64,000 nucleotides of DNA from Prevotella sp. (GCA_031285625.1 JAITVV010000092.1:96001-160000); one strand, 5' to 3'. Positions 16,043 through 44,005 are shown, counted from the stretch's first letter. Notes: generated by a model not told the origin, from the letters alone. Made by a program: numbers and translations.

Positions 16043-16122
16043 ACCCCTCCCGACTTCCCCAAAAGGGAGGTGAAAGATATATCGATTTAATCTCCCCTCC
16101 TTTTGGAGGGGTTGGGGGAGGT
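16043..16122. repeat. CCCCTCC/GGAGGGG-type REP-like palindromic repeat
   Basis: ACCCCTCCCGACTTCCCCAAAAGGGAGG ... CCCCTCCTTTTGGAGGGGTTGGGGGAGGT; GC-rich island overlapping the end of the PurA-like ORF. Confidence 0.7.
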
Positions 16123-17229
16123 GCTCCAATCAGGCCTGTCTTTCATTTCCACTCCATTCACCATTTGCAATAAATTACTATCACCCAGTTCTTTCAGAAA
16201 GGTATCCTTATCTTTCAGTTGGTCGAGGCAAGTGAATATGAGAAACTTATTACTGTCCGGATTGTATATCCTGTCGCAATTGATAGCATGTTCCACCAAT
16301 GAAGCATCAAAAGGAGCAGTGCGGAAAATACCCTGCCAGTCGTTTTCCTGATTTGATTCCGTTGTGGTATTTATAAGTTCTATCTGTTTGTTATCGGGAA
16401 AAGGTCCGTTGCCATGCCGTGTCTGATAACAACGGCTGATATAATAAGTATTGATTACCTCGTCTTTCAATGTACTCTTGCTAATAATTTCCATTGCATT
16501 TTGCGATGTGGTATTGCTTCTTGTCACATGAGGAAAGAAACCGAAGTGCTGGTCTAATAATATACCTTGCGATCCTTCAAATACAAAGTCTTTATACTTT
16601 GCTGCAATATCATCTATTGTTGCAACAGTTACAAAGCTTCTGTAAAATTCAAGGCTTTCTTCCCATGATTCCATTGCTATTTCCAATTCACTCTCATAAG
16701 TGATTTGAGAACTCATGTTCAATGTCTTTACCCTATCTTCATAATATCTTTTGATAAAGGACATTTTAGTTTCAAATACATACGGAGTTTTTAAATCGTT
16801 TGTGTAAAGGTTGAAGAAGTCTTCGTTTCGTTGTAAAGTTGTACCGAATCCAACCCCGCATGTACCATGTCCGGTAATCATAGACAAAGCCCTGTTGAAA
16901 GCTAAATCATAAGGTGTAGTAAGCATTGCCATTGGATGAACATAATATGCTTTTCTTTCTATTGCTAACAACTCAAGAGCTTTGTATTCATTCAGAAAAG
17001 CAATAGGAAAGACCGTGCAATGCTGGCTTATATAGGTTGATGCACCCTGAAATGCTCCAGCTCCGAACTGTGAGAATATATGCTTCTTTCCATCTGCAGA
17101 AATGGCCGTATGTCCGCATTGATGCCCTCCTGAAAAGCGAATGACAAGCGCTTCAGGGTGAGACAGGGAATGGACTGCCTGCCCTTTCCCTTCGTCTCCG
17201 AAACCTGTGCCTAATACTATGTTAATCAT
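16087..17229 (-). CDS. Divergent adenylosuccinate synthetase-like ligase (short PurA paralogue)
   Basis: GFGDEGKG, RFSGGHQCGHT, HGTCGVG, FEGSQGILLD, FPHVTRSNT, YQTRHGNGP; lacks the TTGRxR aspartate loop. Confidence 0.88.
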   Translation of the reverse strand: MINIVLGTGFGDEGKGQAVHSLSHPEALVIRFSGGHQCGHTAISADGKKHIFSQFGAGAFQGASTYISQHCTVFPIAFLNEYKALELLAIERKAYYVHPMAMLTTPYDLAFNRALSMITGHGTCGVGFGTTLQRNEDFFNLYTNDLKTPYVFETKMSFIKRYYEDRVKTLNMSSQITYESELEIAMESWEESLEFYRSFVTVATIDDIAAKYKDFVFEGSQGILLDQHFGFFPHVTRSNTTSQNAMEIISKSTLKDEVINTYYISRCYQTRHGNGPFPDNKQIELINTTTESNQENDWQGIFRTAPFDASLVEHAINCDRIYNPDSNKFLIFTCLDQLKDKDTFLKELGDSNLLQMVNGVEMKDRPDWSTSPNPSKRRGD

Positions 17230-17275
17230 AATTTTAAAAGAAATAGTAGATTACCTAAAAAATATTCATGTATTT

Positions 17276-17346
17276 TGTCATACTGAGTGCAACGAAGTAT
17301 CTCGACCCTATTGGACACGAGATGTTTCACTCCGTTCAACATGACA
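17276..17346. repeat. REP-like hairpin repeat, short form
   Basis: TGTCATACTGAGTGCAACGAAGTATCTCG...CGAGATGTTTCACTCCGTTCAACATGACA, similar to 44870-44939. Confidence 0.8.
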
Positions 17347-17350
17347 AACA

Positions 17351-18280
17351 CTATAATGTGATTACCGATGACCCGTTATTATACCTATCAGGAACAAGCG
17401 AATCTATTTTAGCAAGAGTGGTTGAGATATTCGAAGCAGTGGCATTGTCAAATGATTTTAGTATCTTATCCATATCCGCACCATTAATTACCGATACAGT
17501 TGTACCAATCAGTTCAGCAATATTATCACTGTCTTTCAAAACCAGAAACCGTTCGCCTAACAACTTTTTCCACTTATCTTCTATATAACTTGACTCATAG
17601 CTACCATCCTCCACATGAATATGGAATACATGGTATTTTTCCAATGCAGCATTATACAGTTGTTCTGCCGTATAATTAGCCGGAGTTTCTTTCATACCCA
17701 TCATATTTTGGATAAAGCGTCCGTTATAATCCGGATGAAAAGATTCGTCCCCAATAGTAAATAAAAAACCTTTCATCCCTCTTTTTTCGTATGCATCGGT
17801 AGATGTATGATATCCCGCCACATACCATGCCAATGGATATGATTCCATCGCCTGTCCTCCACCGCAACCTTCAATATAAATATCGGCAAGGCTATCTACC
17901 AGCTTAGTCGTTTCCTGTTCAAACTGTCCAATCTGTAATGGAACATTATCTGATATATGGTCTCCTATTGCACCGAAACATATCTGTGCATCATTTACCC
18001 CGTGCAGAATAAGTGTATCCATCATCTTCGGAAATTTGTTCTGTATCAGGTGATAAGGTATCTGACCCATAGAACCAGTTACATCTACAAATACCATAAC
18101 CGGTACACTATACGGATGGTCTGCAGAGTCTCGGCATTCACGCATCCCATTTTTCAGCAATGCCGGATTCATTGTATCTTTCAGCGAGTCTGAGAAAATC
18201 TGGTTTGCAGATTTTGAACCATAGTTACGGGCACTTGTTACTGCGTTGTACGTTCTTGATGAATAATGTCCTGTTCCCAT
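17351..18280 (-). CDS. von Willebrand A (MIDAS) domain protein
   Basis: VMVFVDVTGSMG (DxTGS), FGAIGDH, EGCGGGQAMESY, FLFTIGDE. Confidence 0.85.
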   Translation of the reverse strand: MGTGHYSSRTYNAVTSARNYGSKSANQIFSDSLKDTMNPALLKNGMRECRDSADHPYSVPVMVFVDVTGSMGQIPYHLIQNKFPKMMDTLILHGVNDAQICFGAIGDHISDNVPLQIGQFEQETTKLVDSLADIYIEGCGGGQAMESYPLAWYVAGYHTSTDAYEKRGMKGFLFTIGDESFHPDYNGRFIQNMMGMKETPANYTAEQLYNAALEKYHVFHIHVEDGSYESSYIEDKWKKLLGERFLVLKDSDNIAELIGTTVSVINGADMDKILKSFDNATASNISTTLAKIDSLVPDRYNNGSSVITL

Positions 18281-18332
18281 AATCTTTAATTTTTAGAAAG
18301 TTTGTAATCAGTTGAAAAGTCCTTAAATATAA

Positions 18333-18410
18333 TTTACGTATTATTTACGCAAACAAAGTAAGAAATAAATATTCAATCTAACAAATAAATTTGCGTATAT
18401 TTTACGCAAA
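18333..18410 (-). promoter_or_regulatory. Paired NrtR-type operators upstream of the vWA gene
   Basis: TTTACGTATTATTTACGCAAA (18333-18353) and TTTGCGTATATTTTACGCAAA (18390-18410). Confidence 0.85.
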
Positions 18411-18470
18411 TAAAAATAAATAATAGATTATGAGATAATTACAAATAAAAAATAAATTGTATCGAAAGTT

Positions 18471-18576
18471 TGTCATTCTGAATGTAATGAAGAATCCCGA
18501 CCCTCCGGGGCACGAGAGTTTGGCTCCGCTTCGCTCTGCCGATTTTCAATTCACTCCGTTCAACATGACAAAGAGA
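18471..18576. repeat. REP-like hairpin repeat, long form
   Basis: Near-identical to 13812-13916. Confidence 0.85.
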
Positions 18577-18630
18577 TAAATAAAAAAGCCCTTGAATTAT
18601 CAAAGGCTTCATTATCATATAGTAGTATTT

Positions 18631-19212
18631 CTATATCTTTTTCAGAAATTCACACAAAGCTTTTGTAGCTAAAGCACGGTGACTAATATTGTTTTTTACA
18701 TCCATACCCAATTGGGCGAATGTTTCAGTATATCCATCAGGTTGAAAGATAGGGTCATAACCAAAACCGGCGCTACCCTTTTCTTCTGTGATAATAACTC
18801 CTTCTATCTTCCCTTCAAACATATATTCTTTACCATCCAAAATCAGCGCAATCACAGAGCGGAATTGGGCTTTTCTGTTTGTAATGCCATCCAACTCTTT
18901 CAATAGCTTCTTCATATTGGCTTTAGCATCGTGGTCTCCACCTGCATAACGAGCCGAATATACACCCGGAGCACCATTGAGGGCATCTACTTCGAGTCCG
19001 GTATCATCACCGAAGCAGTCATAACCGTATTTCTCTTTAACATAGCAGGCTTTGATTAAAGCATTTTCCTCTAATGTCTCGCCCGGCTCTTCTATATCTT
19101 CGTAGCAACCAATATCTTTCAGGCTAAGTATATCGAAATTTTCTCCCACAACTTCTTTTACCTCTTCCAGTTTATGGGCATTGTTGGTAGCAAATACTAA
19201 TTTTCTTTTCAT
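18631..19212 (-). CDS. rdgB: dITP/XTP pyrophosphatase (RdgB/HAM1)
   Basis: [23 protein letters not shown] motifs. Confidence 0.95.
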
Positions 19213-20411
19213 TTCTCCTCCAATGAATTATAGGCTTCCAAAGCTTTTTCCAATACAGTAAGCGCCTTGCCTAAATCTTCCTTTTTCAGCACATAAGCTA
19301 TACGCACTTCGTTCTTACCCAGTCCGGGAGTTGTGTAAAAGCCAGATGCCGGAGCCATAAAAATAGTTTCTCCTTCATATTCAAAATCAGACAGACACCA
19401 TGCACAGAACTTATCAGCATCATCTACCGGTAGGCGCGCTACGGTATAGAAAGCACCCATCGGTATAGGTGAATACACCCCTGGAATACGATTCAGCCTG
19501 TCGATAAGGAATTTTCGCCTTTCCACATATTCCTCATACATATCCTGTATATATTCATGCGTCGCATCCAGTGAGGCTTCCGCAGCTATTTGACCGATAA
19601 GTGGCGGACTAAGACGAGCTTGGCATAACTTCATCACCGTTTTGCGAAGCTCTTTATTTTTTGTTATTAATGCACCGATACGGATACCGCACTCACTATA
19701 TCGCTTCGAAACGGAATCGATAAGCACAACATTTTCTTCTATTCCAACCAGATGGCAAGCTGAGACATAAGGAGAGTTGGTATATATAAAATCGCGGTAT
19801 ACTTCATCAGAAAACAGATATAAGTCGTATTTCTGCACCAGATGCTTAATCTGATTCATTTCTGCACGTGAGTATAAATAGCCTGTGGGGTTATTCGGAT
19901 TACAAATCAGAATACCTTTTGTGCGTTCATTGATAAGCGCTTCAAATTTTTCTACAGGTGGCAATGCAAAACCCTCTTCAATAGTAGATGATACGGTACG
20001 GATAACAGCTCCTGCCGATGCTGCAAATGCCATATAATTAGCGTAGGCCGGTTCGGGAACAATAATCTCATCACCCGGATCAAGACAAGCCAGGAAAGCA
20101 AAAAGAACAGCCTCAGAACCTCCCGTTGTTACAATTATATCATCCGGCGATACACTTATATTGTATTTTGTATAATAACCCACAAGTTTTTCCCGATAAG
20201 AACGGTAACCGTCACTCGGGCTATATTCCAATACTGTACGGTCTATATTTCGTATCGCGTCAAGGGCCTCCTCTGGAGTTGGCAGGTCTGGCTGACCTAT
20301 ATTCAGATGATATACTTTCAGTCCTCTTGCTTTTGCAGAGTCTGATAACGGAGCCAATTTCCTGATTGGAGAATTCGGCATATCTATTCCTCGTTGCGAA
20401 ATTTGTGGCAT
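19209..20411 (-). CDS. Class I PLP-dependent (aspartate-type) aminotransferase
   Basis: [32 protein letters not shown]. Confidence 0.93.
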
Positions 20412-20671
20412 AATAAAGATTATCTATTCTTATTAACAATAAGGCACAAATATACAAATAATAGGAATATATTAAGGTTTGAGCGGAAGAATAGATTTAT
20501 TTAATTGATATATAATCTAGAAAACATTAGATTGTTAAATATAAGAACAAAGTATACGTTTTTAACTCATACTTTTTTTATTTATAGCTTTTTGGAACAT
20601 TATATTTTATTTTTTTACTAATTTTGCAGGCTGAATTTGAATCGCTTATAATTAATTATTAAATATTGAAA

Positions 20672-21571
20672 ATGAAAGCATTTGTATTCCCTGGACAAGG
20701 GGCTCAATTTGTAGGAATGGGAAAAGACCTTTATGAAACATCTCCCGTAGCAAAAGAAATGTTTGAGAAGGCAAACGAAATTCTAGGATTTCGTATAACA
20801 GACCTGATGTTTGCCGGAACTGATGAAGATCTTCGTCAAACAAAAGTTACCCAACCTGCTATTTTTCTACATTCAGTAATTTTAGCTAAAACAATGGGTG
20901 AAGATTTCACACCGGAAATGGTTGCAGGTCACTCATTAGGTGAATTTTCAGCATTAGTTGCTGCTAACGCTTTATCTTTCGAAGACGGACTAAGACTAGT
21001 ATATAAACGTGCTTTGGCTATGCAGAAAGCATGTGAAATGAATCCTTCAACAATGGCTGCCGTACTTGGCTTACCTGATGCTAAAGTTGAAGAAATATGT
21101 GCTTCAATCAAGGATGAAGTTGTAGTTCCGGCAAACTATAATTGCCCCGGACAAGTGGTTATATCCGGTACCAATGCAGGTATCGATCTGGCTTGTGAAC
21201 TTCTTTTGGCCGCTGGAGCAAAACGTGCACTAAAACTAAAAGTAGGCGGTGCATTCCATTCCCCATTGATGGAACCTGCCAAAATAGAATTATCAGAAGC
21301 AATAAATACAACAATATTTGCTTTACCAACATGCCCTGTTTACCAAAATGTATCAACAGTTGGTGAGTCCGATCCTTTGACTATCAAGGCAAACCTGATT
21401 GCACAATTAACAGCTCCTGTAAAATGGACTCAATCGGTAGAACATATGGTGGCTGATGGCGCTACAGAGTTTATTGAACTTGGACCAGGAAATGTACTAC
21501 AAGGACTGGTAAAGAAAATAGCTCCACAAGTAGCTACCAGCGGAAAGCAACAACTTGTTAATTGCCTTTAA
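20672..21571 (+). CDS. fabD: Malonyl-CoA:ACP transacylase
   Basis: FPGQGAQ, GHSLGE, GAFHS. Confidence 0.96.
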   Translation: MKAFVFPGQGAQFVGMGKDLYETSPVAKEMFEKANEILGFRITDLMFAGTDEDLRQTKVTQPAIFLHSVILAKTMGEDFTPEMVAGHSLGEFSALVAANALSFEDGLRLVYKRALAMQKACEMNPSTMAAVLGLPDAKVEEICASIKDEVVVPANYNCPGQVVISGTNAGIDLACELLLAAGAKRALKLKVGGAFHSPLMEPAKIELSEAINTTIFALPTCPVYQNVSTVGESDPLTIKANLIAQLTAPVKWTQSVEHMVADGATEFIELGPGNVLQGLVKKIAPQVATSGKQQLVNCL

Positions 21572-21672
21572 GGTCGCAGACCTATTTATTGCTTTCATAT
21601 CTATAACAGCAATAGGGCGTTATGATTAAATAATGTTTCAGTAAATATTTCTTTTACTAAATTAGGGCTAAG

Positions 21673-22626
21673 ATGGCATTTTTTTCAGGAAACAAACAAG
21701 CTGACGATCAGGACGAGACGGCAAAAAACATCTTTCTGTTCGAGCTTGTTCAAAAGAATATCCTAGTAACGGGAGCTAACGGTCAGCTAGGTAGCGAGAT
21801 CCGGCGAATATCGGCAAATCATGAGAATAACTTTAAGTTTTTCTTCACAGATGTAGCTGAACTAGATATTACAGATCTACAGGCTATAGATCGTTTTATC
21901 AAAGAAAATAATATAAAATACATTATCAATTGTGCCGCGTATACAGCTGTAGACAAAGCTGAAGATGATGTAGACCTATGTTATAAAATTAATCGTGATG
22001 CTGCAAAAAATCTAGGTATCGCAGCTACAAATAACAATGCTAAAGTTATACATGTTTCTACGGACTATGTGTATGATGGAACAGCTAATAAGCCTTATGT
22101 AGAAACAGATGCTGTAAACCCTCAATCGATATATGGTAAATCCAAACTGGATGGAGAGAATGAGTTAACAAAAGCTTGTCCTGAAAGCATTATTATTCGC
22201 ACAGCCTGGTTGTATTCAATCTATGGGAACAACTTTGTAAAAACAATGATAAAGCTTGGAAAAGAACGTGACACATTAAATGTAATTGCTGACCAGACAG
22301 GTACTCCGACAAATGCAGCTGATCTGGCCCAGGCAATCATAAAAATCTTAGACTTTAGTGAAGCTAATAAATTTATACCCGGAATATATCATTATTCTAA
22401 TGAGGGTATTACCACATGGTATGATTTTACATTAGCAATACATAAAGATGCAGGTATTACATCCTGCAAAGTAAATTCAATCACTACAGATCAATATCCG
22501 ACTAAAGCAACCAGACCTAAGTATAGTGTATTAGAGAAAGCTAAAATAAAATCCACATTTAATCTTTCTATACCTAAATGGGAAGAAAGTTTAAACATTT
22601 GCATCAAAGAATTGTTATCAATATAA
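21673..22626 (+). CDS. rfbD: dTDP-4-dehydrorhamnose reductase
   Basis: GANGQLG, NCAAYTAVD, STDYVYDG, YGKSK. Confidence 0.95.
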   Translation: MAFFSGNKQADDQDETAKNIFLFELVQKNILVTGANGQLGSEIRRISANHENNFKFFFTDVAELDITDLQAIDRFIKENNIKYIINCAAYTAVDKAEDDVDLCYKINRDAAKNLGIAATNNNAKVIHVSTDYVYDGTANKPYVETDAVNPQSIYGKSKLDGENELTKACPESIIIRTAWLYSIYGNNFVKTMIKLGKERDTLNVIADQTGTPTNAADLAQAIIKILDFSEANKFIPGIYHYSNEGITTWYDFTLAIHKDAGITSCKVNSITTDQYPTKATRPKYSVLEKAKIKSTFNLSIPKWEESLNICIKELLSI

Positions 22627-22662
22627 CGTATTATAATTCACTCACAGCTATATTTTAGCGCA

Positions 22663-23217
22663 ATGAATAAGATTTATCTTTTCAATTTGATACTCTTTAC
22701 AACATTCGTTTCCTGCCAAAGCAAACAGGAGAATAATTTGAAAGCTCAATTAGGTACTTTGAATGTAGAACTTACCGAAACTTTTCTTAGCAGTAAAGCT
22801 GACAGTATCGACTTAACAGATGTTTTGAGACTTACTCAGAAAGAGTATGATGATTTACAGTTATCTAAAGTTAAAGGGCTGGAAGGTTATGAATTAAGTG
22901 ACCTGACCATGGGACAGGTATTATTGGATAATGCCAATGGTACAATACTCACAATACAGATTATCACAGATGGCGAGATTACTGAGTATCTTCTCAGTTA
23001 CGACAAAGACGGAAATTTGGTAGATAACCTTATTGTTGCCTATGAAGATATGGTAGAATATTATAGTGAAATATCTTCAAAAATAAATTCTGATTTAATT
23101 ACCGTACAAACGGTTAATTTTACCTATGGTGATGAAGATGGCAACCAGACTGAAGCTTCTGACACTGCTATTGCCAAATATCAAATCACACCGGAGTTTA
23201 AGTTTGTAATGAATTGA
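22663..23217 (+). CDS. Hypothetical lipoprotein
   Basis: Lipobox FVSC, acidic mature region. Confidence 0.7.
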   Translation: MNKIYLFNLILFTTFVSCQSKQENNLKAQLGTLNVELTETFLSSKADSIDLTDVLRLTQKEYDDLQLSKVKGLEGYELSDLTMGQVLLDNANGTILTIQIITDGEITEYLLSYDKDGNLVDNLIVAYEDMVEYYSEISSKINSDLITVQTVNFTYGDEDGNQTEASDTAIAKYQITPEFKFVMN

Positions 23218-23353
23218 AATTCCGTAATATTTAGCAAGATTAATAAAGATTTCTTGCAACACACTATTTTAAACAAAAGACAACAACACATAATCCAGAA
23301 TTAATACAATTGTATTAATTCTGGATTTTATCACAACGCTCAAAACCGTTAAA

Positions 23354-24523
23354 ATGAAGCAAAAACTTTTTTTTGTGGGTATCTTTATTTCGATACTCTT
23401 ACTTCCTTCTACTACGAAAGCACAGGTAACAATCGGATCTAATCTTACACCTAATACAGGGGCATTATTAGACTTGAAAGAAAATGCAAATAAAGATACA
23501 AATGCAAATAAAGGGTTATTACTACCACGCGTAATGTTAGAAGACATAGGGAATCTATACCCTATGTTTACGAATGGAGATCCCCTTTATACAGATACAG
23601 AAAAGGATCTGCATACCGGACTAATAGTATATAACCTTAAAGATGATCCTGCAAATGGATTATGCCCCGGGCCTTATGTATGGGAAAACTCTAGCTGGAA
23701 CAGACTATTAGAACCTTGTGAATATACTCCGCCGTCAACACTTACCATTGAGTGCCCGATAACAACACCTATTGTTTCCGGAACTAAAGGCGCAACAATG
23801 TCAGGGACAATAGTACCAATCCCGTACACAATCACGGGAGCCCTTCCTTATCAACTGACAGGTTCATCCGTAACATATAACGGATTGACTGCAACTGTAG
23901 CAGATCAGTCCTTAAGTTCTAATTCGGGTACCATTAATATCACTATTAGCGGCAATCCTACGAATGATACTGGTGGGCTTTATGAATGGTCTATACCTAT
24001 AGGGCAAGGACAAGCATCCTGTAAAGTAAACTTAAGTGTAACAACCCCTCCAATAGGCACTGATTGTGCCACAACTAACAGTCCTGGAGTAGCGCTTGTA
24101 TTCAGCTATAACAGCAAATGGTACGCGGTTAAAATAGGATCACTTAATGGAAATGCAGTTGCTGCACTAAATGAACACGACACAGAGGAATCTGCATTAA
24201 GGGATCCTGAAGGACTTCAGTTTTGTTCAAATCTATCCGGACCGAGATGTGTACCAGTATTTTCAAGGGATGGTGTTAGGTATAATACTCAATTCTTCAC
24301 TGTGAATTCGATTAGTAGCGAAAATAACGGAGTAGTTGCATTTAGTGGGTGTACACAATCTATGATAGCAAACCCTGGAGAAATGCTTAGTTATCAGAAT
24401 GCCACTATTCCTCCAATGGCTACATCCGGAAATCTCGGAGCTATAACAGTTAACGGTACATTATATCTAGGTTATGTTACCGGAGCTGGAGGTATATTGA
24501 CAACCAAAAGTATTATCTACTAA
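23354..24523 (+). CDS. Secreted protein of the QVTIGS...ALLDLKE...KGLLLPRV type
   Basis: Signal peptide, N-terminal motif common in Bacteroidota surface proteins, Thr/Gly/Cys-rich beta domains. Confidence 0.7.
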   Translation: MKQKLFFVGIFISILLLPSTTKAQVTIGSNLTPNTGALLDLKENANKDTNANKGLLLPRVMLEDIGNLYPMFTNGDPLYTDTEKDLHTGLIVYNLKDDPANGLCPGPYVWENSSWNRLLEPCEYTPPSTLTIECPITTPIVSGTKGATMSGTIVPIPYTITGALPYQLTGSSVTYNGLTATVADQSLSSNSGTINITISGNPTNDTGGLYEWSIPIGQGQASCKVNLSVTTPPIGTDCATTNSPGVALVFSYNSKWYAVKIGSLNGNAVAALNEHDTEESALRDPEGLQFCSNLSGPRCVPVFSRDGVRYNTQFFTVNSISSENNGVVAFSGCTQSMIANPGEMLSYQNATIPPMATSGNLGAITVNGTLYLGYVTGAGGILTTKSIIY

Positions 24524-24538
24524 GATATAGTATGAGGG

Positions 24539-24570
24539 AAATAGCCAGCTGATTACAGCAGGCTATTTTT
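24539..24570 (+). terminator. Intrinsic terminator
   Basis: AAATAGCCAGCTG...CAGCAGGCTATTTT. Confidence 0.65.
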
Positions 24571-24657
24571 ATATTCCGATCCATAATCATGTAAATACAG
24601 TATTAGGATTTATTCTCCTTTTTTTTTAGTATTTTTGCAGCTTATTAGAAAAATTCA

Positions 24658-35523: not shown

Positions 35524-35530
35524 CATCGAT

Positions 35531-35815: not shown

Positions 35816-35872
35816 CGATTATTCATCACCAAATGAGTGATAAAAAACATTAAGGTTACTGTTGTTTCCATA

Positions 35873-36139
35873 TTATATTTTCCACCAAATATCATACATT
35901 TCATCAATAGCTTTTGAAGACGATTCTTCCTTAATTTTCATCAATTCTTCATAAACAACTTTTTTAGCATTATCTATCGTATCTCCAGTCACAATATATT
36001 CACCATGTCCCAGAATAAAGTCAGCACGATATTCACCACCGGATGAAGAGATGAAAACTTCTATTATTCCTCTCTTTTTAGGCAATTCAGGAGAATCCGG
36101 AAGATTGCCATAACCAAACAATCTAGTAAATAATCCCAT
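35873..36139 (-). CDS. Hypothetical protein (last gene of the nrtR operon)
   Basis: 88-aa ORF 4 bp after the previous stop. Confidence 0.55.
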   Translation of the reverse strand: MGLFTRLFGYGNLPDSPELPKKRGIIEVFISSSGGEYRADFILGHGEYIVTGDTIDNAKKVVYEELMKIKEESSSKAIDEMYDIWWKI

Positions 36140-36143
36140 AATA

Positions 36144-36554
36144 CTAATTCATAAATTTCATAACACAAAAGCTTGCCTCATCTGTTTTACTTCTGTCAAA
36201 ACCGTCTCCGAAAAATACCTTTACAATCTCTATCCGTCCAATAATCTGATTATTAAATTCTTCCAAATCCTCAGCCGGAACCCATAATTCATTATGCATA
36301 AATCCTCCAACATTATGAACTTCATATTTTTGCAGATAATCTGCTGGCAAGTCAAATTTTGTAACTATACCACAATAGCCCGAAAACTCGTCTTTTGTAT
36401 TCCATTTTTCAGCAATCTGCTCTGCATAATCCTGATTAAGCACCGGATAGAAGATCGGCTGCCACTCTAAACGGGGAGGAAATCCTTTGAAATTCAGATC
36501 TATAATCAATTGTAGTTCTTTGAGTCCTATAGGACGATATAATGTTGTTTTCAT
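36144..36554 (-). CDS. Conserved small protein associated with ADP-ribosylglycohydrolases (possible ART-like fold)
   Basis: TLYRPIG...FPPRLEWQPIFYPV...HNELWVPAEDLEEFN; start moved to MKTT. Confidence 0.7.
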   Translation of the reverse strand: MKTTLYRPIGLKELQLIIDLNFKGFPPRLEWQPIFYPVLNQDYAEQIAEKWNTKDEFSGYCGIVTKFDLPADYLQKYEVHNVGGFMHNELWVPAEDLEEFNNQIIGRIEIVKVFFGDGFDRSKTDEASFCVMKFMN

Positions 36555-36555
36555 T

Positions 36556-37428
36556 TTATTCTTTCCATTTATCCACCATTTCATAAACAAGTGGTGCTAT
36601 ATCCAAATAATTAAATTTCTCTATAAATTCTACAGGAATCATATCAACCCCCTTCAAAGTCCCGGTTATCTGCCCGAACATAGAACAAACGGTATCCGTA
36701 TCACCACCTAGTTTTATCAAATCGGTAATGATGGTTTTAAAGTCGGATTCATTTATCTTTTGCGCTGCAAAAATAGCCAGGGGAACAGAATCGACTACAT
36801 AACCTGTTGATTTATAAATCTTCCCGATTTCAGAGATTGATAAGTCCTTCAATTTACCCATCTCAATCAGGCGGTCTCTAACCCGTGTATCAGGTATCTT
36901 TTCTACTACAAAATCTATCAGATTATTATCTCCAGTCCATGCTTCAATTATGGATGCTTTTATTGCGTAATAAATTGCTAATGCACCACAATAAGCTTCA
37001 TCGTTACGATGTGTGATTGTACATATATCCTTAATCTTCAGTCTAGTTGCATATTTCTTAAAAGCCAGAGGAGCAATCCGCATAGCAGCGCCATTACCTC
37101 CAGCATATTCGCCCGAACGGCCAACTATTGCCCAATGTCCTCCCACCTGTAATTCGCGCAACGCTTTTAGAGTACTGGAGCCTAATCCAATAAGCTTCCC
37201 GCTGTTATACCAATTCAGGAAACGTTCAGCTACTTTTTCAGGCCTGATTTCGATATCATCACCTATAGCCTCACAGGTTGCCAAAGTCAATTGAGTATCA
37301 TCAGAAACTGCCCAGTTGAAATCAAAACCGACATTCAGTACATAGTCGATATTCTCATACCGGAAGCCAAGTGCATCGCCTATAGCCCCGGCAATAAGGC
37401 AACCTTCGAGCCTTTGTTTTATGTTCAT
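36556..37428 (-). CDS. ADP-ribosylglycohydrolase (DraG/ARH family)
   Basis: GDALG, SDDT, GNGAAMRIAP, GGDTDT. Confidence 0.93.
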   Translation of the reverse strand: MNIKQRLEGCLIAGAIGDALGFRYENIDYVLNVGFDFNWAVSDDTQLTLATCEAIGDDIEIRPEKVAERFLNWYNSGKLIGLGSSTLKALRELQVGGHWAIVGRSGEYAGGNGAAMRIAPLAFKKYATRLKIKDICTITHRNDEAYCGALAIYYAIKASIIEAWTGDNNLIDFVVEKIPDTRVRDRLIEMGKLKDLSISEIGKIYKSTGYVVDSVPLAIFAAQKINESDFKTIITDLIKLGGDTDTVCSMFGQITGTLKGVDMIPVEFIEKFNYLDIAPLVYEMVDKWKE

Positions 37429-37431
37429 TTT

Positions 37432-37974
37432 CTATTCTGATATATACTTTGAGTCTACAAAATCTGTCAGCCAGACACCATTATCCGATACAAAAAATTC
37501 AATACCATTACGATGCATTTGTCCCGACAAGATAGTGAGAATTACCGGACGTCCGTGACGAGAGCCAACTTTATGTGCCGTCTCTTTATCCTTACTCAGG
37601 TGTACATGCTGACGGCTGGCTTTCCTTATCCCATTCTCCATAATAGATGCGTAGAAACGGTCTGCCGTACCATGATACAGATATTCGGGTGGTTCCACAG
37701 GGCTTAAAGCTAAATCTATATCAACAGAGTGTCCCTGATTGGCTCGTATTCTTGTTTTATCTTCGTTGAAGGAATAACGCTTCTTATCGTTAGTCGCTAC
37801 TATTTCTTCCAACTCATTCATTGTGAAACTGACTCTGTGTTTACTACATTTTTCAATTAGTTCATGTACATTTACCCAACCATTTGGGTCTAGTTCAATA
37901 CCTATTTTTTGAGGTTCATGCCTTAGTATAAGGCTTAAGAATTTACCTATTCTTTTTTTATGTTGTTCTGTCAT
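37432..37974 (-). CDS. kptA: RNA 2'-phosphotransferase Tpt1/KptA
   Basis: LSLILRH, KKRY, IRANQGHS, LYHGT, RQHVHLS, NGVWL. Confidence 0.95.
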   Translation of the reverse strand: MTEQHKKRIGKFLSLILRHEPQKIGIELDPNGWVNVHELIEKCSKHRVSFTMNELEEIVATNDKKRYSFNEDKTRIRANQGHSVDIDLALSPVEPPEYLYHGTADRFYASIMENGIRKASRQHVHLSKDKETAHKVGSRHGRPVILTILSGQMHRNGIEFFVSDNGVWLTDFVDSKYISE

Positions 37975-37994
37975 TTGTGTTTATTATTATAAAA

Positions 37995-38909
37995 TTAATC
38001 AAAGTAAAAAGTATCTGTACTTTCTACTGAATTTAGCCACTCTTGCGGTATGGTTTCATCCGGGGCATAAAGTATCACAATACTGCCTACCATCGCACAA
38101 ATAGTGTCCCTGTCTCCCAATGCCGAGACTGCACGCCAGAGAGCATCTTCAAAGTTATCGAGATGATTGGCAGCGCACCAGATGGCAATAGGCACCGTAT
38201 CCTGAGAGGTCAGCTTAATGCCATTACCAAGAATGGAAACCACTGTATCTATACGGTATGTTCCGGGAATATGCATCGCTTTTCTTATTTTAGACTTTGT
38301 GTCACTGTCTTCTAACTGGTCATATACTTCCTTAATAAAAGCCTCAGCAGAAAGTTGAGTATTTGTTAACCTGAGATTCAACGCAAGAGAAGCTGCATAA
38401 GCAATAGCCGTAGCCCCTACCCTAGCTTCAAGGTTGAAATGTGTAACTAATGCTGATTTAGCTACTTCTGATTTCAGCCACTTCAAATCATTATAGAAAT
38501 ATGCACCCAAAGGAGCAGTCCGCATAGCCGCGCCGTTACCCATAGAGCCCTGTCCATCGAATACACTGGCTGATACTTCCTGCCAGGGTTGCCCCTCGCC
38601 TATTTCTCGCAAAATCTTATGAGCCGTTCCACCATATCCACGGTTGATATCTTTTCGGTAATTACTTGCAAACTGTTTTGCCAGCATATCCTGATTGACT
38701 TCACCATTAGCAACCAGATTATTTAATACGGCTATAGCCATTACAGTATCGTCCGTATATTCCCATTTAGTATAGGGAGGTACAATGCGGTTATCTATAT
38801 AATTGTTTACAGTATCCAAATCTCCGAAAAAGCTATCCCCAAAGGCATCGCCAATAGATAATCCCAACAGAGATTTCTTTGCATATTCTATATTTAATTT
38901 CTTTGTCAT
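37995..38909 (-). CDS. ADP-ribosylglycohydrolase (DraG/ARH family)
   Basis: GDAFG, YTDDT, GNGAAMR, GDRDT. Confidence 0.93.
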   Translation of the reverse strand: MTKKLNIEYAKKSLLGLSIGDAFGDSFFGDLDTVNNYIDNRIVPPYTKWEYTDDTVMAIAVLNNLVANGEVNQDMLAKQFASNYRKDINRGYGGTAHKILREIGEGQPWQEVSASVFDGQGSMGNGAAMRTAPLGAYFYNDLKWLKSEVAKSALVTHFNLEARVGATAIAYAASLALNLRLTNTQLSAEAFIKEVYDQLEDSDTKSKIRKAMHIPGTYRIDTVVSILGNGIKLTSQDTVPIAIWCAANHLDNFEDALWRAVSALGDRDTICAMVGSIVILYAPDETIPQEWLNSVESTDTFYFD

Positions 38910-39389
38910 TTAATCAAAATCGTAGATATAGACATCTATATCATTTTTTACTAATGTTTTTTCAATTAGCGGCTCTACTTTTTCCCACTTGCCACCTGCC
39001 AGACCACACCCAATACGGGGCATATGTACGCTGGCGCGTAATTGTTTTGCTCCCTCAGCCAGTTTTTCGAGGCAGGACTCAATAGCTTCATATCTTATAG
39101 GTACTCCCGTACTTCTCCCTGTTTTGGTTCCACGCTGGCCAATCATATTCGCTACGTAAATATACGGTTCTACCTGCACAATCTGTATATTTCCCAATGC
39201 AAAATTGTTTTCTGCACGTTCCCTGTGCCATAAGCGGAATGCTTTTTCCGGTTCGGGCCAGCGTTTAGATATGGCTAAAACAAAGCCTTTTCCCCAACCG
39301 CCTATATCATTGCTTATATGAGCTATTATCTTTGTTCCGCTGGCTTGCGGGGAAGTAGCATCACCTTTTAGGTATGTTATCTTTTTCAT
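38910..39389 (-). CDS. SCO6735/TARG1/DarG-class macrodomain
   Basis: KGDATSP, IIAHISNDIGGWGKGFV, NMIGQRG, MPRIGCGLAGGKW. Confidence 0.9.
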   Translation of the reverse strand: MKKITYLKGDATSPQASGTKIIAHISNDIGGWGKGFVLAISKRWPEPEKAFRLWHRERAENNFALGNIQIVQVEPYIYVANMIGQRGTKTGRSTGVPIRYEAIESCLEKLAEGAKQLRASVHMPRIGCGLAGGKWEKVEPLIEKTLVKNDIDVYIYDFD

Positions 39390-39406
39390 TTTAGTATCAT
39401 TTTTCT

Positions 39407-39997
39407 TTAATCCATCCCTAGCCGCTTCATTATTTCCTCCGATATAGGATAAACCTTTTCTTTCGGTAACAACTCTTTCGCTTTATCATGTCGACCGTCT
39501 AAGCGTAATTTATATATCTTATTTGCCAAAGGGGAATAGTCCTTAATATCCACAATCCATTCTTCGTTATATTCCTGTATCAAATGACGGCTGATACCCA
39601 CTTGTATAGAGCGGTAATCCATCTTTTGTCCCCTGATAGAACGTTCAGGGTCCCATTGTACATGCACCTTTGCCTGGTCAAACATTTCGCGCCAGACATC
39701 ACCATTAGCATACACCCGATGTGAAGGATGTGTTAATACAGCCTGAGAAAGAGCATATTCCCACGCCGAACGTTTGATTCTTACTGCCAGAATATACTCC
39801 TGTCCTGACTTTTGTCCGTAACCGCTGCGTTCCATCATCCACAAGAACGAAGGTTTTATCCATGTCATGCGGGTGTATGAAAATGGCGGTACAAACCGTT
39901 TATTTTCTATTGCGGGTTTTCCTATTGCTTCTCTGTAAGCCTGATAGACAATAATTGTATCCCTGTCGTAATCGGCTCTTATTTCATATTGTTTCAT
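39407..39997 (-). CDS. DUF4291-domain protein
   Basis: EIRADYD...VYQAY, RMTWIKPSFLWMMERSG, VQWDPER, RSIQVG. Confidence 0.9.
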   Translation of the reverse strand: MKQYEIRADYDRDTIIVYQAYREAIGKPAIENKRFVPPFSYTRMTWIKPSFLWMMERSGYGQKSGQEYILAVRIKRSAWEYALSQAVLTHPSHRVYANGDVWREMFDQAKVHVQWDPERSIRGQKMDYRSIQVGISRHLIQEYNEEWIVDIKDYSPLANKIYKLRLDGRHDKAKELLPKEKVYPISEEIMKRLGMD

Positions 39998-40952
39998 TGT
40001 ATTTCTTTTCTAATCTGTCACATAAATCCATTATGTCATCTTTGCGGGCTAACTGGTCTATCCATTTTTGAGGAATGGCATCGAAACCATATAACAGACC
40101 GGCAAGCCCTCCGGCAATAGCGGCTGTAGTATCCGTGTCGCTACCCAGATTAACTGCTCTGAGCACTGTCCCCTCATATGTATCTTCTTTAAAGAGGCAC
40201 CACAAAGCTGCTTCGAGACTGTGAACCACATAGCCCGACGATGCTATTTCCGATTCAGGATATTCATATATTGGCTTTATCTCATATCCTCCAACAGGAT
40301 TTAGTAAAATCCGGTGGAATTTATTTATCTCATTATCGGAACAAATAGGGTTATTATGTAAAAAGTTATTTACTATTTCCTTTGTATTTTCAAAGGCTTT
40401 GAACTTATCATGCATCTTAATCAGTCGCAGCCCAAACTCTATATAGATAAAGCAGGCCAGCACAGACCTGATATGTCCATGGGTAAGGGAGGATACATCC
40501 TGTATATGCCTGAAACGTTCTGCGATATCCATATGCTGCACATAAAACAGTAAAGGCATAATGCGCATTAGTGAACCGTTTCCATTATCGGCTTCCTCGC
40601 GGCCACCTGCCATAACAGGATTTATATCTTTCATCAACTGATATATAGCCCTCGATGTAGCAACCCCAACATCAAAAACCTCTCCATGAGGTGTCCAGTA
40701 ATTATCTTCGTACCATGATACAAAGCGCATCCCCATATCTTTCAGGTTATAACCTCTGGTCAGACTTTCAGCCAGGCAAAAAGTCAAAGAGCTATCGTCC
40801 GACCATGTGCCTGCAGGCTGGTTATGCGTTCCATAGGCAAGCATATCTGTAACGGGATTTTCTTTCAGATAATCCCTATTTCTGAATTCGACAGGTACAC
40901 CTAAAGCATCGCCAACGGCTACGCCGAATAAAGCGCTATATATTAGTTTCAT
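39984..40952 (-). CDS. ADP-ribosylglycohydrolase (DraG/ARH family)
   Basis: GDALGVPVEF, WSDDS, NGNGSLMRI, GSDTDT; start moved to MKLIY. Confidence 0.94.
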   Translation of the reverse strand: MKLIYSALFGVAVGDALGVPVEFRNRDYLKENPVTDMLAYGTHNQPAGTWSDDSSLTFCLAESLTRGYNLKDMGMRFVSWYEDNYWTPHGEVFDVGVATSRAIYQLMKDINPVMAGGREEADNGNGSLMRIMPLLFYVQHMDIAERFRHIQDVSSLTHGHIRSVLACFIYIEFGLRLIKMHDKFKAFENTKEIVNNFLHNNPICSDNEINKFHRILLNPVGGYEIKPIYEYPESEIASSGYVVHSLEAALWCLFKEDTYEGTVLRAVNLGSDTDTTAAIAGGLAGLLYGFDAIPQKWIDQLARKDDIMDLCDRLEKKYNETI

Positions 40953-41712
40953 AATCAGATAATTTAATTGTATGGTATACCCATTCTTTAGAAGAATCCA
41001 AAAGTGATACAAGCAACAACTTCTTATTCTTAATCAGAGATATTGAACTTCTCTGAGATAATAGTTGTTTGTCGGATTCAAGTTCTAATACAAGTTCAGG
41101 TTCTCTTTTCTGCATATTAAAATTATAAATCGCATTTGAAGAGAATATGAATAAACAATTTTCCAAAGGAGATTCTGCAACCCCAGCAATCTGAAAGCTG
41201 CAAAAATCATTCAGCAGGATTAATTCATCAGTTTTTTTCAGATAACAATAATATTCGTATTCGTTTATATTATCACTCTTGTAAAGGCAAGAATAAAAAA
41301 TGATTCCAAGAAAACTCTCAGGGATAAAAGAAATCCAATTTAATCTTCTTTCTGTATAATTCCCCGAATATATCATTTCCATTTTTCCTGAATCCATATC
41401 AACAAAAACAATCTGGTTACCTTTTTCCACTAGAGAGAAATAACATGTTTTTGAATCTATTGACCATGGATAGTTTGAAATTGCTCTTATATAGTCTCCC
41501 TTATTATGTTCCCAAACAGTTTCATTTGATTCTGTATTTATTATTTTGCCATAATAAAAAGCATCTCCAAATCTGTATTCTCCCATATAAGTTAAGCCTA
41601 ACCGATATTTTTTATCAAGAGACACATAGTTATCTTTTCCATAATATTTAGGTATGCATCCATTAAGTACCTGATAATCGGCTTCTGTTATAGCATCTAT
41701 TTTAAGCTTCAT
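40936..41712 (-). CDS. Hypothetical protein (possible beta-propeller fragment)
   Basis: 258-aa AT-rich ORF inside the operon. Confidence 0.6.
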   Translation of the reverse strand: MKLKIDAITEADYQVLNGCIPKYYGKDNYVSLDKKYRLGLTYMGEYRFGDAFYYGKIINTESNETVWEHNKGDYIRAISNYPWSIDSKTCYFSLVEKGNQIVFVDMDSGKMEMIYSGNYTERRLNWISFIPESFLGIIFYSCLYKSDNINEYEYYCYLKKTDELILLNDFCSFQIAGVAESPLENCLFIFSSNAIYNFNMQKREPELVLELESDKQLLSQRSSISLIKNKKLLLVSLLDSSKEWVYHTIKLSDYETNI

Positions 41713-41727
41713 GATTTTTTGGAAAAA

Positions 41728-42279
41728 TTATCCACAATTCTTTTTTAATTTGTCTCGTACCTCCATTAAGGCAAAGCCTAACAGATTTGTCCCTTTCCAC
41801 AAATATGGATTATTTACATTTTCGTTTTCTTCACTTAACCCTATGCCCCATATCCGGTCGAGAGGGCTGGCTTCAACAAGAACTTTATTTCCTGTATCCA
41901 ACAAAAAAGACTTCATCTCTTCATTCTGAGAGAATTTATAGAAGTTACCTTCCTCAACAATACCGGATTGGTATTTTTTCCATTCAGTCAGGTCAAAGTT
42001 TCTGACTTTCTTTCCTAAAATCTGGACTTCGGCAGGAGATTCAGTAGAAAGTATCTCCCGGCAAATATCCTTGTCTCCGAATAATTCTGCTTTTTTAGCC
42101 ATCATCCAGTGCTCAGTTGTCAGATAACACACATTATCTACAGCAAAAGGTGAATATGTCCATTGGCTAAGACATGCTCCGGTTACAGTAGTACCTTTCT
42201 CCGGCTTCCAGAAGAAAAGGTACTCTATTACCTCTGTATTTAGTTTATCGTAAAGCCAATTGATGTTATATGTTTTCAT
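41728..42279 (-). CDS. NADAR-family protein
   Basis: LSQW, TEHWMMAKKA, LVEASPLDRIWGIG, GTNLLG. Confidence 0.93.
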   Translation of the reverse strand: MKTYNINWLYDKLNTEVIEYLFFWKPEKGTTVTGACLSQWTYSPFAVDNVCYLTTEHWMMAKKAELFGDKDICREILSTESPAEVQILGKKVRNFDLTEWKKYQSGIVEEGNFYKFSQNEEMKSFLLDTGNKVLVEASPLDRIWGIGLSEENENVNNPYLWKGTNLLGFALMEVRDKLKKNCG

Positions 42280-42832
42280 TATTCAGTTTATCCCTTATCT
42301 CCATTAATGCAAAGCCTAATAGATTCGAACCTTTCCATAGACGGGGATTCTCGGCATGTTCATCATCCTGCGCCATTCCTATTCCCCATATTTTATCTAC
42401 GGGACTGGCTTCAACCAATACCCTGTCTTTTGTATTCAGCAAAAATTCTTTCAGACCGGCATGTTGCGAGAACTTATGATAATTCCCTTCACAAACGATA
42501 TCAAAACAGTTTTCACCCCATACTTTCGGGTCAAAATTCTTGACTTTCCTTCCCAGTTTTTTAGCTTCGGCTGGAGATTTTGCTTGTAAGATTTGTTCTA
42601 TCATTTCTTTATCAAATAATTCTGCTTTCTTAGCCATCATCCAATGTTCGGCAGTGGCATATGTCACGCCATCTACCGTGAAAGCACTCTGCCACCACTG
42701 GCTAAAGCATGATTTTGTTACTGAGCCGTCTTTTGACACGGCATGTCCCCAGAATAGAAGATATTTAGCACTTTCTTTTTTCTCAACTTTATTTAGTAGC
42801 CAGTTTATGTTGTAGGTTGTATATTTTTCCAT
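42266..42832 (-). CDS. NADAR-family protein
   Basis: FSQWW, TAEHWMMAKKA, LVEASPVDKIWGIG, GSNLLG. Confidence 0.94.
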   Translation of the reverse strand: MEKYTTYNINWLLNKVEKKESAKYLLFWGHAVSKDGSVTKSCFSQWWQSAFTVDGVTYATAEHWMMAKKAELFDKEMIEQILQAKSPAEAKKLGRKVKNFDPKVWGENCFDIVCEGNYHKFSQHAGLKEFLLNTKDRVLVEASPVDKIWGIGMAQDDEHAENPRLWKGSNLLGFALMEIRDKLNNENI

Positions 42833-42869
42833 TGTTTTTTTATTTTATATAATTATTTTCTTTTTACTG

Positions 42870-43097
42870 TGCGCAATCAAAGATTGCTTACCTTCCTTTT
42901 GCCCAAAGCCGCAAAAGGAAGCAAAAACGCTTTGGTGGCACACCCTCTCAGACGACCCCTTACAGGCTCACGGACTAAATCGAAAGAACTTGCCTTTCAG
43001 GCTTCGGACAACTTTCAATTTTACGTCCGTTTTACCTGAGGGGTACCCCGTCTGTCGGGTTAACGCCACTGAGAGCAAAGCCGCGACAAGAAAGGGT
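42870..43097. repeat. GC-rich nested-hairpin intergenic element
   Basis: CTTCCTTTTGC/GCAAAAGGAAG hairpin, then nested pairs GTGGC/GCCAC, CAGACG/CGTCTG, CCCCT..CAGG/CCTGAGGGG, ACGGAC/GTCCGT. Confidence 0.55.
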
Positions 43098-43114
43098 ATT
43101 AATTTCAAATTTCT

Positions 43115-44005
43115 TTATATACTTAGTTGCACAAATTCTTTTATAAAGTTTTTATCCAGTGTCTCGCGCCAGGTTCGCATAGAGTGAAAAGCATCCGTTT
43201 CGGAAAGCATCAGATAATTCAATACATTCTGATTTACGTTAGCATCACTCCGAAGCCTGACTCCCGAACCGCTGACATCACCCAAAGCACAGATTGCCGT
43301 TTTCTTGGCCAGACTGATGTCTATATACGAACCAGCCTGCTTGGTATCGAACATATAAGGTGGATAGTAATTCTTATATTTCCCATTTATAGTCTTTACT
43401 TTATCGGTACATATATGATAAAAACTTGTCACCTTAATACCATGTATCTCAGGGATAATAAATACTGAATCGGGATTTATGCCTGCATGAGTAACCTCCA
43501 GTGATTCCAGCATAGATACAAATTCTATTAGCCGGGAGAATATCCAGTTCACGTGTTTATTTTTTTCATTTTCAGGGAGTAAACCGATTGCCTTGTTTAA
43601 CGGAATACACTTATATCCGGATTTATAAACCAGTTGATTCCCTTCAAAATCAAGATTAGATGGTATATACTGCATAAAGTGGCTGAAAGACTGCGCATTA
43701 AAATTACTCTTAGCCAAAAATATGATTTTATCATAGTTCACCTTGGACTTCTTAAGCAAATCAACATCACCTTCCCACCTATGGACCAGATAATTGGAAC
43801 GGAATATTCCCGATTCATCCCGAAACTCGTAACCTCTCTCAAAATCCGTTTTCAGATTATTAAGATGGGTAAAAGCCAAGACAGCATCTTTATCTTTATT
43901 TACATCCGGGTGAAGATTTTTTGCTAAAATCTTATAATCCGCGTGGTCTTTACAAATGTCAGGATACCAGTTTGTAGATAATATTCTATTGATGTAGTTG
44001 TTCAT
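43115..44005 (-). CDS. Minimal J-domain (HPD) fused to a degenerate protein-kinase-like domain
   Basis: YKILAKNLHPDVN...AFTHLN; WIFSRLIE...VTHAGINPDSVFI (catalytic-loop-like, no Asp at the HxD position). Confidence 0.7.
   Translation of the reverse strand: MNNYINRILSTNWYPDICKDHADYKILAKNLHPDVNKDKDAVLAFTHLNNLKTDFERGYEFRDESGIFRSNYLVHRWEGDVDLLKKSKVNYDKIIFLAKSNFNAQSFSHFMQYIPSNLDFEGNQLVYKSGYKCIPLNKAIGLLPENEKNKHVNWIFSRLIEFVSMLESLEVTHAGINPDSVFIIPEIHGIKVTSFYHICTDKVKTINGKYKNYYPPYMFDTKQAGSYIDISLAKKTAICALGDVSGSGVRLRSDANVNQNVLNYLMLSETDAFHSMRTWRETLDKNFIKEFVQLSI

Follow-up and report, generated by a model that had tools for sequence, protein, structure and literature searches.

Gene layout of the locus

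The sequence analysed here is a 64,000-nucleotide stretch of DNA from Prevotella sp. (the window, whose full length is the basis of all coordinates). A sequence-only reading had singled out three of its genes as a split module under the control of an NrtR-type repressor: one for a protein with a von Willebrand factor A (vWA) fold, one for a PurA-like enzyme (PurAL), and one joining a J domain to a kinase-like fold (JK). All three were recovered as open reading frames on the minus strand, and together with nrtR and three pairs of operator sites they make up the following features.

16087-17229 (-): PurAL, the PurA-like gene, 380 residues; PurA-family paralogue, Pfam PF00709
17351-18280 (-): vWA-fold gene, 309 residues; motif of the metal ion-dependent adhesion site (MIDAS) type; first gene after operator pair 2
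43115-44005 (-): JK, predicted J domain and pseudokinase fold, 296 residues
44100-44801 (-): nrtR, Nudix domain and NrtR winged-helix domain
8075-8093 and 8127-8145: operator pair 1, followed by a microbial-type PARG gene at 8168-9025 (+)
18334-18352 and 18391-18409: operator pair 2, 54 and 111 bp upstream of the vWA start
44981-44999 and 45033-45051: operator pair 3, upstream of nrtR

The nrtR product matches the Pfam families NrtR_WHD (4e-23) and NUDIX (5.3e-18). JK starts 94 bp after nrtR, and the vWA-PurAL pair lies 26 kb away from JK.

A cassette with an invariant vWA-PurAL core

Gene-neighbourhood profiling, the check that had been proposed for the claim that the three families occur together, found them elsewhere as a contiguous JK-vWA-PurAL cassette. 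Bacterial counts here refer to the best 80 of at least 579 loci, from a scan of one genome per species. PurAL follows vWA in 76 of the 80; three of the other four loci end at a contig edge and one (L042) truly lacks the gene. JK is present in 32 loci and in 29 of these ends no more than 250 bp upstream of vWA on the same strand, while in 33 loci JK is replaced directly upstream of vWA by a small coiled-coil protein of about 110 residues, and 15 loci have neither. The end of the JK or small-protein gene and the start of vWA are no more than a few bases apart in most loci. Since JK is absent or replaced in many loci, the invariant core consists of vWA and PurAL. The proposed co-occurrence of the three families was thus borne out, and beyond it JK proved dispensable, giving way in 33 of 80 loci to an unrelated protein.

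The small protein, of which L047:9657-9998 is an example, has the family motif SL-x-RNN-x-x-IR-x-DRA. It matched no Pfam or PHROG family, gave no significant match in the PDB (best E 0.063), and showed no likeness to JK (hhalign probability 0.2). A genome-wide search for JK, which detected the gene in 5 of 5 positive controls, did not find it in 10 of 10 genomes with a cassette of the non-JK type. On a tree of 161 vWA rows, the label for the third partner changes 12 times against a mean of 60.9 after shuffling, and 0 of 200 shuffles were as low.

NrtR lies within 10 kb of the cassette in 40 of the 80 loci, distributed as 13 of 32 JK-type loci, 25 of 33 small-protein-type loci, and 2 of 15 others. 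A minimal unit of nrtR-JK-vWA-PurAL is found in ten Micromonospora loci and in one metagenome-assembled genome (MAG) of Saccharibacteria, and three further MAGs, one of Acidimicrobiales and two of Acetobacteraceae, have nrtR divergent from a vWA-PurAL pair. Long nrtR-led rows with NADAR, 2OG-Fe(II) oxygenase, Macro, PARG, DUF4291, Sir2, ARH, KptA, and phosphoesterase genes enclose the cassette in Chryseobacterium and Flavobacterium. The supposed occurrence of these families beside NrtR genes in other phyla is confirmed for Actinomycetota (Micromonospora), Saccharibacteria, and Bacteroidota; the vWA family as such was found in at least five bacterial phyla. Of the ADP-ribose genes, NADAR is the most frequent neighbour of the cassette (22 of 80 loci). 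Among the loci kept, the nearest relative of the vWA copy in the window, at 83% identity, belongs to a Bacteroidales MAG (L004), in which vWA-PurAL-NADAR-methyltransferase is followed by JK-nrtR on the opposite strand, all within 6.6 kb. This compact arrangement indicates that the 26-kb split in the window genome is a local rearrangement.

Operators and the predicted NrtR regulon

The two halves of the split cassette had been claimed to stand behind the same operators, and a pair of matching motifs was found at each. The operator is the palindrome TTGCGTA-N5-TACGCAA, with two copies upstream of vWA and two upstream of nrtR. Scanning the window for TTGCGTA-W5-TACGCAA with up to three mismatches gave 6 sites where 0.33 were expected, a number reached by 0 of 100 shuffles. 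These sites form three pairs with an intra-pair spacing of 52-57 bp and, at up to two mismatches, they are the only ones in the whole 4.84-Mb genome. With operator pair 1 directly before the lone PARG gene, the predicted regulon comprises three units, all within 37 kb. The vWA-PurAL pair certainly stands behind operators. The same motif directly precedes vWA in L004 and L005; in Niastella (L017) and L020, which have no nrtR nearby, it precedes JK. Of the 80 bacterial loci, 29 carry the motif, and of the 25 loci with both NrtR and the small protein, 24 do; among the 80 viral loci it appears in just 2, weakly.

Two groups of neighbouring genes extend the units led by nrtR and vWA.

35873-42832 (-): remainder of the nrtR-led gene row, ADP-ribose-processing genes and unknowns
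12162-15909 (-): TonB-dependent receptor, PnuC, and NadR-like enzyme, nicotinamide riboside salvage; downstream of PurAL

The nrtR-led row contains two NADAR genes, three ADP-ribosylglycohydrolases, DUF4291, Macro, and KptA/Tpt1, as well as a beta-propeller-like unknown and two small unknowns. The genes for the TonB-dependent receptor, PnuC, and the NadR-like enzyme run in the direction of PurAL without an operator of their own, and PnuC-NadR may be co-transcribed with vWA-PurAL; a terminator-like hairpin at 16068-16044 lies between PurAL and the receptor gene. Another terminator-like hairpin (18610-18585) closes the Ham1 unit upstream of vWA. Ham1/RdgB was considered as a lead toward inosine nucleotides and was set aside, as it forms a separate unit behind this hairpin and recurs in 0 of the 80 bacterial loci.

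A gene for a WYL/WCX-domain regulator (45061-46083, -) ends 10 bp from the outer nrtR operator. No homologue of it was found in the 80 bacterial loci, so the palindrome goes with NrtR and not with the WYL regulator. According to the accessible text of Iyer et al. 2022 (PMC9503650), Nudix and WYL regulators are mutually exclusive in systems of this kind, a pattern from which the window departs in that the two genes adjoin. For characterised NrtR proteins the effector is ADP-ribose, which dislodges the repressor from DNA (PMC2330246).

The three proteins

The domain calls of the sequence-only reading held, each by its own route: PurAL through Pfam, vWA through a structure model and Foldseek, and the J domain and kinase fold of JK through a family profile together with a model. 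The vWA protein had no match in Pfam, NCBIfam, or PADLOC, and the sequence profile of its family recovered no vWA of solved structure. With 32 relatives as input, AlphaFold2 gave a model (pLDDT 89.9) that Foldseek matched in the PDB to integrin beta I-like domains, the vWA of the pilus adhesin SpaC, and vWF A3 (E 1e-6 to 1e-5, probability 1.00, TMq 0.4-0.5). Each of the 30 aligned relatives has the MIDAS-type residues D66-V-T68-G-S70, T159, and D178, which the secondary structure of the model places on the beta1, alpha3-alpha4, and beta4 loops, in keeping with a complete putative MIDAS. M1 and G2 at the N-terminus are likewise invariant in 30 of 30, and nearly all of the 150 best cluster representatives match from position 1 of the profile and residue 1 of the protein. 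A search for longer, fused relatives found none, which is weak evidence. The family counts 1592 proteins at E ≤ 1e-3 among 2273 candidates scored, and the profile matched 2364 of 1.84 billion cluster representatives (50% identity) at E ≤ 1e-3 and 978 at E ≤ 1e-30.

PurAL belongs to Pfam PF00709 (Adenylsucc_synt, E 3.3e-44). Its P-loop residues G11, D12, G14, K15, and G16 (GDEGKG), together with H40, Q221, and T236, are invariant in 30 of 30 relatives, and D12, H40, Q221, and T236 align with Asp13, His41, Gln224, and Thr239 of E. coli PurA (1cg3), of which Asp13 and His41 are catalytic and Gln224 binds the base. The residues of E. coli PurA that hold the 5′-phosphate of inosine monophosphate (IMP), N38, T129, and R143, correspond in PurAL to Q37, C124, and a variable residue. 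In the aspartate loop, T-T-G-R-x-R-R in PurA, one of three arginines is kept. A canonical PurA is encoded on another contig of the genome (C52); it is 31% identical to PurAL, whose C-terminal segment is shorter by some 40 residues. The remodelled sites for the IMP 5′-phosphate and for aspartate appear compatible with a substrate other than IMP, without identifying one. That PurAL is the housekeeping PurA orthologue was rejected on these remodelled sites, on the canonical purA elsewhere, and on its score of 132.6 bits against the NCBIfam PurA cut-off of 402; PurZ of the 2-aminoadenine pathway (NF038379) was rejected at 48.1 bits, far below the cut-off of 300.

The final PurAL codons and the DNA that follows (16044-16110) contain hairpin repeats of the form CCTCC-(A/T)4-GGAGGGG. 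The C-terminal tail of PurAL, …SPNPSKRRGD, is not kept in relatives and may derive from this element.

As a single sequence, JK stays below the Pfam cut-offs (DnaJ, 18.3 against 27.8 bits; Kinase-like, 18.2 against 25). A family profile of 21 relatives matched solved J domains (2ys8, E 1.9e-7; 6jmg, E 4.6e-6) and kinase C-lobes (8qcw, E 8.8e-6), and the top Foldseek matches of its model (pLDDT 93.9) were the DNAJB1-PKA chimera (8fe2, 4wb7) and the kinases ASK1 and IRAK4. All 21 of 21 sequences keep the HPD motif (H32, P33, D34). They also have H-x-G in place of H-R-D in the catalytic loop and share no invariant Lys in the N-lobe, and the DFG position is S-F-Y in Bacteroidota forms. Judged by these motifs, JK is a J domain on a predicted pseudokinase, that is, a kinase fold without the catalytic Asp.

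Phage copies of the cassette

The sequence-only reading had placed the module in bacteria beside NrtR; beyond this, the cassette is widespread in phages, and there too vWA and PurAL are its invariant core. A vWA relative is encoded by 464 IMG/VR contigs. Among the best 80 of these, with 8 kb fetched on each side, PurAL is present in 78, JK in 53, the small coiled-coil protein in 23, and an NrtR-like gene in just 3. Viral and bacterial rows interleave on the vWA tree (11 changes), indicating repeated transfer between phages and bacteria.

Among cultured phages, 219 of 50,697 records match vWA, including 200 from Mycobacterium, 10 from Rhizobium, and 6 from Vibrio. The roughly 200 Mycobacterium records are sequenced cluster C phages of Mycobacterium smegmatis. 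In one of them, Bread, the cassette is annotated as gp257 'serine/threonine kinase', gp258 'hypothetical protein', and gp259 'PurA-like adenylosuccinate synthetase', and lies near the terminase and a polynucleotide kinase gene; gp257, which the JK profile matches at E 3.5e-51, has the HPD motif, and its catalytic loop reads H-G-A. A NADAR gene lies close to the vWA-PurAL pair in Vibrio phage phiKT1024, and Rhizobium phage RHph_Y65 carries the pair 3 kb from two genes, one for a nicotinamide mononucleotide (NMN) adenylyltransferase/Nudix protein and one for a phosphoribosyltransferase-like protein. The genes that precede vWA in the Rhizobium and Vibrio phages fit neither the JK profile nor that of the small protein. 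The cassette proteins fall into PHROG families 2971 (unknown function), 3043 (kinase), and 1211.

Other genes recur around the viral copies. An R2K.2 ATP-grasp gene often follows the cassette (32 of 80 viral contigs) and a HAD_SAK_2 gene often precedes it (27 of 80); in one large group of viral contigs, ligases and an exoribonuclease flank it together with these two genes, and viral loci have GIY-YIG/NUMOD homing endonuclease genes lodged between vWA and PurAL. Examples of these contexts are L091:7433-8188, L112:5784-6374, and L145:9597-10340. R2K.2, HAD_SAK_2, and the like were rejected as parts of the module, having no counterpart in the 80 bacterial loci or the window genome with one marginal exception, a single unnamed viral-neighbour cluster elsewhere in the window genome (E 7.6e-4).

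Proposed mechanism and alternatives

The module is real, widespread, and mobile; its mechanism we infer. The explanation that we favour, and to which we give about an even chance of being right as a whole, is a mobile cassette of phages and bacteria with a vWA-PurAL ligase core, an interchangeable third partner, derepression through NrtR, and a DnaK-recruiting JK. In the window genome, JK would have stayed behind nrtR when a rearrangement split the cassette and moved vWA-PurAL 26 kb off. Since both halves and the PARG gene have the same NrtR-type operator pair before them, all would be derepressed jointly with NADAR, Macro, ARH, and KptA, which remove ADP-ribose, as the NrtR effector, probably ADP-ribose, accumulates. 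PurAL would then use a nucleoside triphosphate to phosphorylate the lactam oxygen of a purine-type substrate other than plain IMP, one whose 5′ end differs from that of IMP, and the phosphorylated oxygen would be displaced by an amine other than free aspartate. The MIDAS of vWA might hold an acidic or phosphorylated ligand, either the enzyme itself or a modified client, in contacts that this scheme would predict between the proteins of the cassette. JK would pass the assembly to DnaK through its HPD motif, and the intactness of this motif is what suggests the step; in the sequence-only reading, vWA and JK would form a scaffold for it. Re-amination of hypoxanthine forms of ADP-ribose or NAD would fit the opened 5′-phosphate site, the one feature that argues for it. 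NADAR removes ADP-ribose from guanine bases and, as it is also the commonest ADP-ribose neighbour of the cassette, guanine-type substrates are an equally good guess.

Several findings weigh against this explanation. About half of the cassettes have no JK, and the core activity can therefore not depend on recruiting DnaK. PurAL has no PurB-like lyase linked to it, and a two-step amination of the PurA type would therefore end at the adduct. The alignment of the putative base-specificity motif T-C-L-D, in which D336 is invariant, is ambiguous (MAFFT offsets it by 3-4 residues), so that PurAL may use either GTP or ATP. As to the effector, the Bacteroidota members of the NrtR family AraR and XylR respond to sugars. 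Within 8 kb on each side, 77 of 80 viral contigs have neither NrtR nor ADP-ribose genes, and the link to ADP-ribose may be a bacterial add-on. The module is also rare: vWA occurs in 9 of 301 sampled Bacteroidota genomes, and among these 301 the window genome is the only one with a full-length JK, the other 22 JK matches being weak and short, mostly to the J-domain part, at E 2e-7 or worse.

The cassette could instead be a phage tool for nucleotide or NAD pools. Where the host drains NAD+ or deaminates adenine nucleotides, it would rebuild these nucleotides or NAD-related compounds from the products of their breakdown, and bacterial copies would later have been domesticated and placed under NrtR. 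The 464 IMG/VR contigs and 219 cultured phage records with vWA relatives are in keeping with this, as are the NMN adenylyltransferase/Nudix and phosphoribosyltransferase-like neighbours in RHph_Y65, the NADAR neighbour in phiKT1024, and the position of the cassette ahead of PnuC-NadR in the window, a pair which, when phage-encoded, forms the NARP3 pathway for restoring NAD+ (PMC13464706, accessible text). We nevertheless regard it as unlikely, given that PurAL has not kept the ligands for the IMP 5′-phosphate and aspartate, that no PurB is linked, that vWA and JK are left without a role, and that the commonest phage neighbours are of the RNA-repair type (R2K.2 and HAD_SAK_2) and not NAD genes. 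Next in likelihood, and also improbable, comes a chaperone set in which vWA, JK, and host DnaK remodel ADP-ribosylated proteins for the hydrolases, with PurAL as a switch or partner driven by nucleoside triphosphates. Such a role would agree with the vWA 'peptide-binding chaperones' that Iyer et al. 2022 (PMC9503650, accessible text) predict in NrtR/WYL-regulated ADP-ribosylglycohydrolase systems, with the intact HPD motif, and with the tight spacing of JK or the small protein to the vWA start in most loci. A mere switch, however, would not need the catalytic Asp and His and the base-binding Gln that PurAL keeps in 30 of 30 sequences, and an ADP-ribosylhydrolase is missing from the 8 kb on either side of most phage cassettes.

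Two further readings seem much more doubtful. In an abortive-infection or toxic effector system, PurAL would make a toxic nucleotide analogue or drain GTP or IMP upon accumulation of ADP-ribose, in line with the patchy, transfer-prone spread (the 9 of 301 Bacteroidota genomes) and the location among ADP-ribose conflict genes behind a repressor. We consider this very unlikely, since no PADLOC model matches vWA, PurAL, or JK and since the same cassette in lytic phages argues against host killing. A longer shot still is that PurAL does not act on small molecules but may join a purine nucleotide through C6 to a protein amine, for which the N-terminal Met-Gly of vWA would be the candidate, much as PurA joins IMP to the amino group of aspartate; JK or the small coiled-coil protein would then load or unload the vWA-nucleotide conjugate. 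If true, this would be a new kind of protein-nucleotide conjugation in phages and in ADP-ribose-sensing bacterial islands. Finally, the locus could be a coincidence, an ordinary purine-synthesis paralogue and two unrelated neighbours near similar AT-rich palindromes. The 26-kb separation in the window genome is all that speaks for this, and it is scarcely credible given the adjacency kept in 76 of 80 bacterial and 78 of 80 viral loci and the 6 operator sites against 0.33 expected, with none elsewhere in 4.84 Mb.

Under the favoured explanation, a purine-C6 ligase, a metal-dependent adhesion-type domain, and a predicted Hsp70 recruiter would act jointly, a combination of activities for which no precedent is known. 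In bacteria, the cassette is tied to an ADP-ribose-sensing type of regulator and has the erasers of ADP-ribosylation as neighbours. Its chemistry could add a step to the conflict between phage and host over NAD and ADP-ribose, as well as a new reaction of the PurA fold. With about 200 sequenced cluster C Mycobacterium phages carrying the cassette, these ideas are readily testable.

Comparison with known systems

As the sequence-only reading had supposed, no description or assigned function of the JK-vWA-PurAL triad was found in the literature searched, and vWA, PurAL, and JK matched 0 families of the PADLOC-DB 2.0 defence models. Among sets with a vWA adaptor are the MoxR-vWA pairs and TerY, a vWA protein that occurs with a kinase and a phosphatase. 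The cassette resembles these in coupling a MIDAS vWA to a P-loop NTPase and/or a kinase-fold protein, and it differs in that the NTPase is a PurA-fold ligase and not an AAA+ protein and that there is no PP2C; unlike that of the TerY sets, its kinase fold appears catalytically dead and carries a J domain. In GAK/auxilin, a J domain and a kinase fold also share one chain, and the J domain of GAK brings in Hsp70 for disassembly. JK has the same two folds in one chain as GAK/auxilin and the DNAJB1-PKA chimera. In contrast to GAK/auxilin, its J domain is N-terminal, it has neither the HRD Asp nor a conserved ATP Lys, and it shows no sequence kinship beyond the domains. PurAL shares PF00709, the P-loop, the catalytic Asp and His, and the Gln with PurA and PurZ; it departs from them in its scores far under the equivalog cut-offs, its remodelled sites and shorter C-terminus, and its constant pairing with vWA, with no PurB, DatZ, or MazZ partner seen.

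The closest described setting is that of the NrtR/WYL-regulated ADP-ribosylglycohydrolase (ARG) systems, predicted in the accessible text of Iyer et al. 2022 (PMC9503650) to counter viral ADP-ribosylation. The window shares with them, as far as that text goes, a Nudix-wHTH repressor, ARG genes, Macro and NADAR accessories, and a vWA protein. Unlike those systems, the cassette also occurs alone in phages and in bacteria without any ARG gene, and no rhodanese-type phosphatase was seen in the window. In its main text, that paper has no partner of the PurA-like, J-domain, or kinase-like kind, and the words PurA, adenylosuccinate, DnaJ, J domain, Hsp70, and pseudokinase are absent from it.

An independent hint that PurA paralogues may serve ADP-ribosylation systems comes by analogy from a DarT-like ADP-ribosyltransferase (ART) family, Lmac_3114, which has adenylosuccinate-synthetase genes in 60% of its neighbourhoods (bioRxiv 10.1101/2024.07.30.605764, accessible text). 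As far as this source goes, a PurA paralogue is tied to ADP-ribosylation there as here, and the P. aeruginosa example includes a NUDIX gene. Unlike in the window cassette, the partners are a DarT-like ART and an AAA protein. The accessible text of the preprint does not mention vWA, von Willebrand, or JK. In the same text, DUF4291 is predicted to be an atypical, ART-like ADP-ribosyltransferase. A DUF4291 gene lies at 39407-39997 (-) in the nrtR row and, if it does encode an ADP-ribosyltransferase, the row would hold a writer as well as erasers, unlike the 'erasers only' template of Iyer et al. 2022.

Other features of the window

Further genes in the window are of interest in their own right. 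A 258-residue protein (40936-41712, -) is beta-propeller-like (its ESM Atlas structure has a TM of 0.66 to DPPIV_N), and a 148-residue protein (36144-36590, -) has homologues in 20 of the 80 bacterial loci. The 726-residue product of 9090-11270 (-) carries a methyltransferase domain at its N-terminus, and in L004 it is found again behind NADAR. Additional unnamed genes inside or beside the regulon lie at 35873-36139 (-) and 11390-12124 (-). A short repeat with the core TTGTCAT-KY-TGAACG-N-AGTGAA has 50 copies in the genome and 5 in the window, at 13890, 17326, 18550, 44056, and 44919; all five are in intergenic spacers of NrtR-controlled units, including the vWA/PurAL and nrtR/JK gaps.

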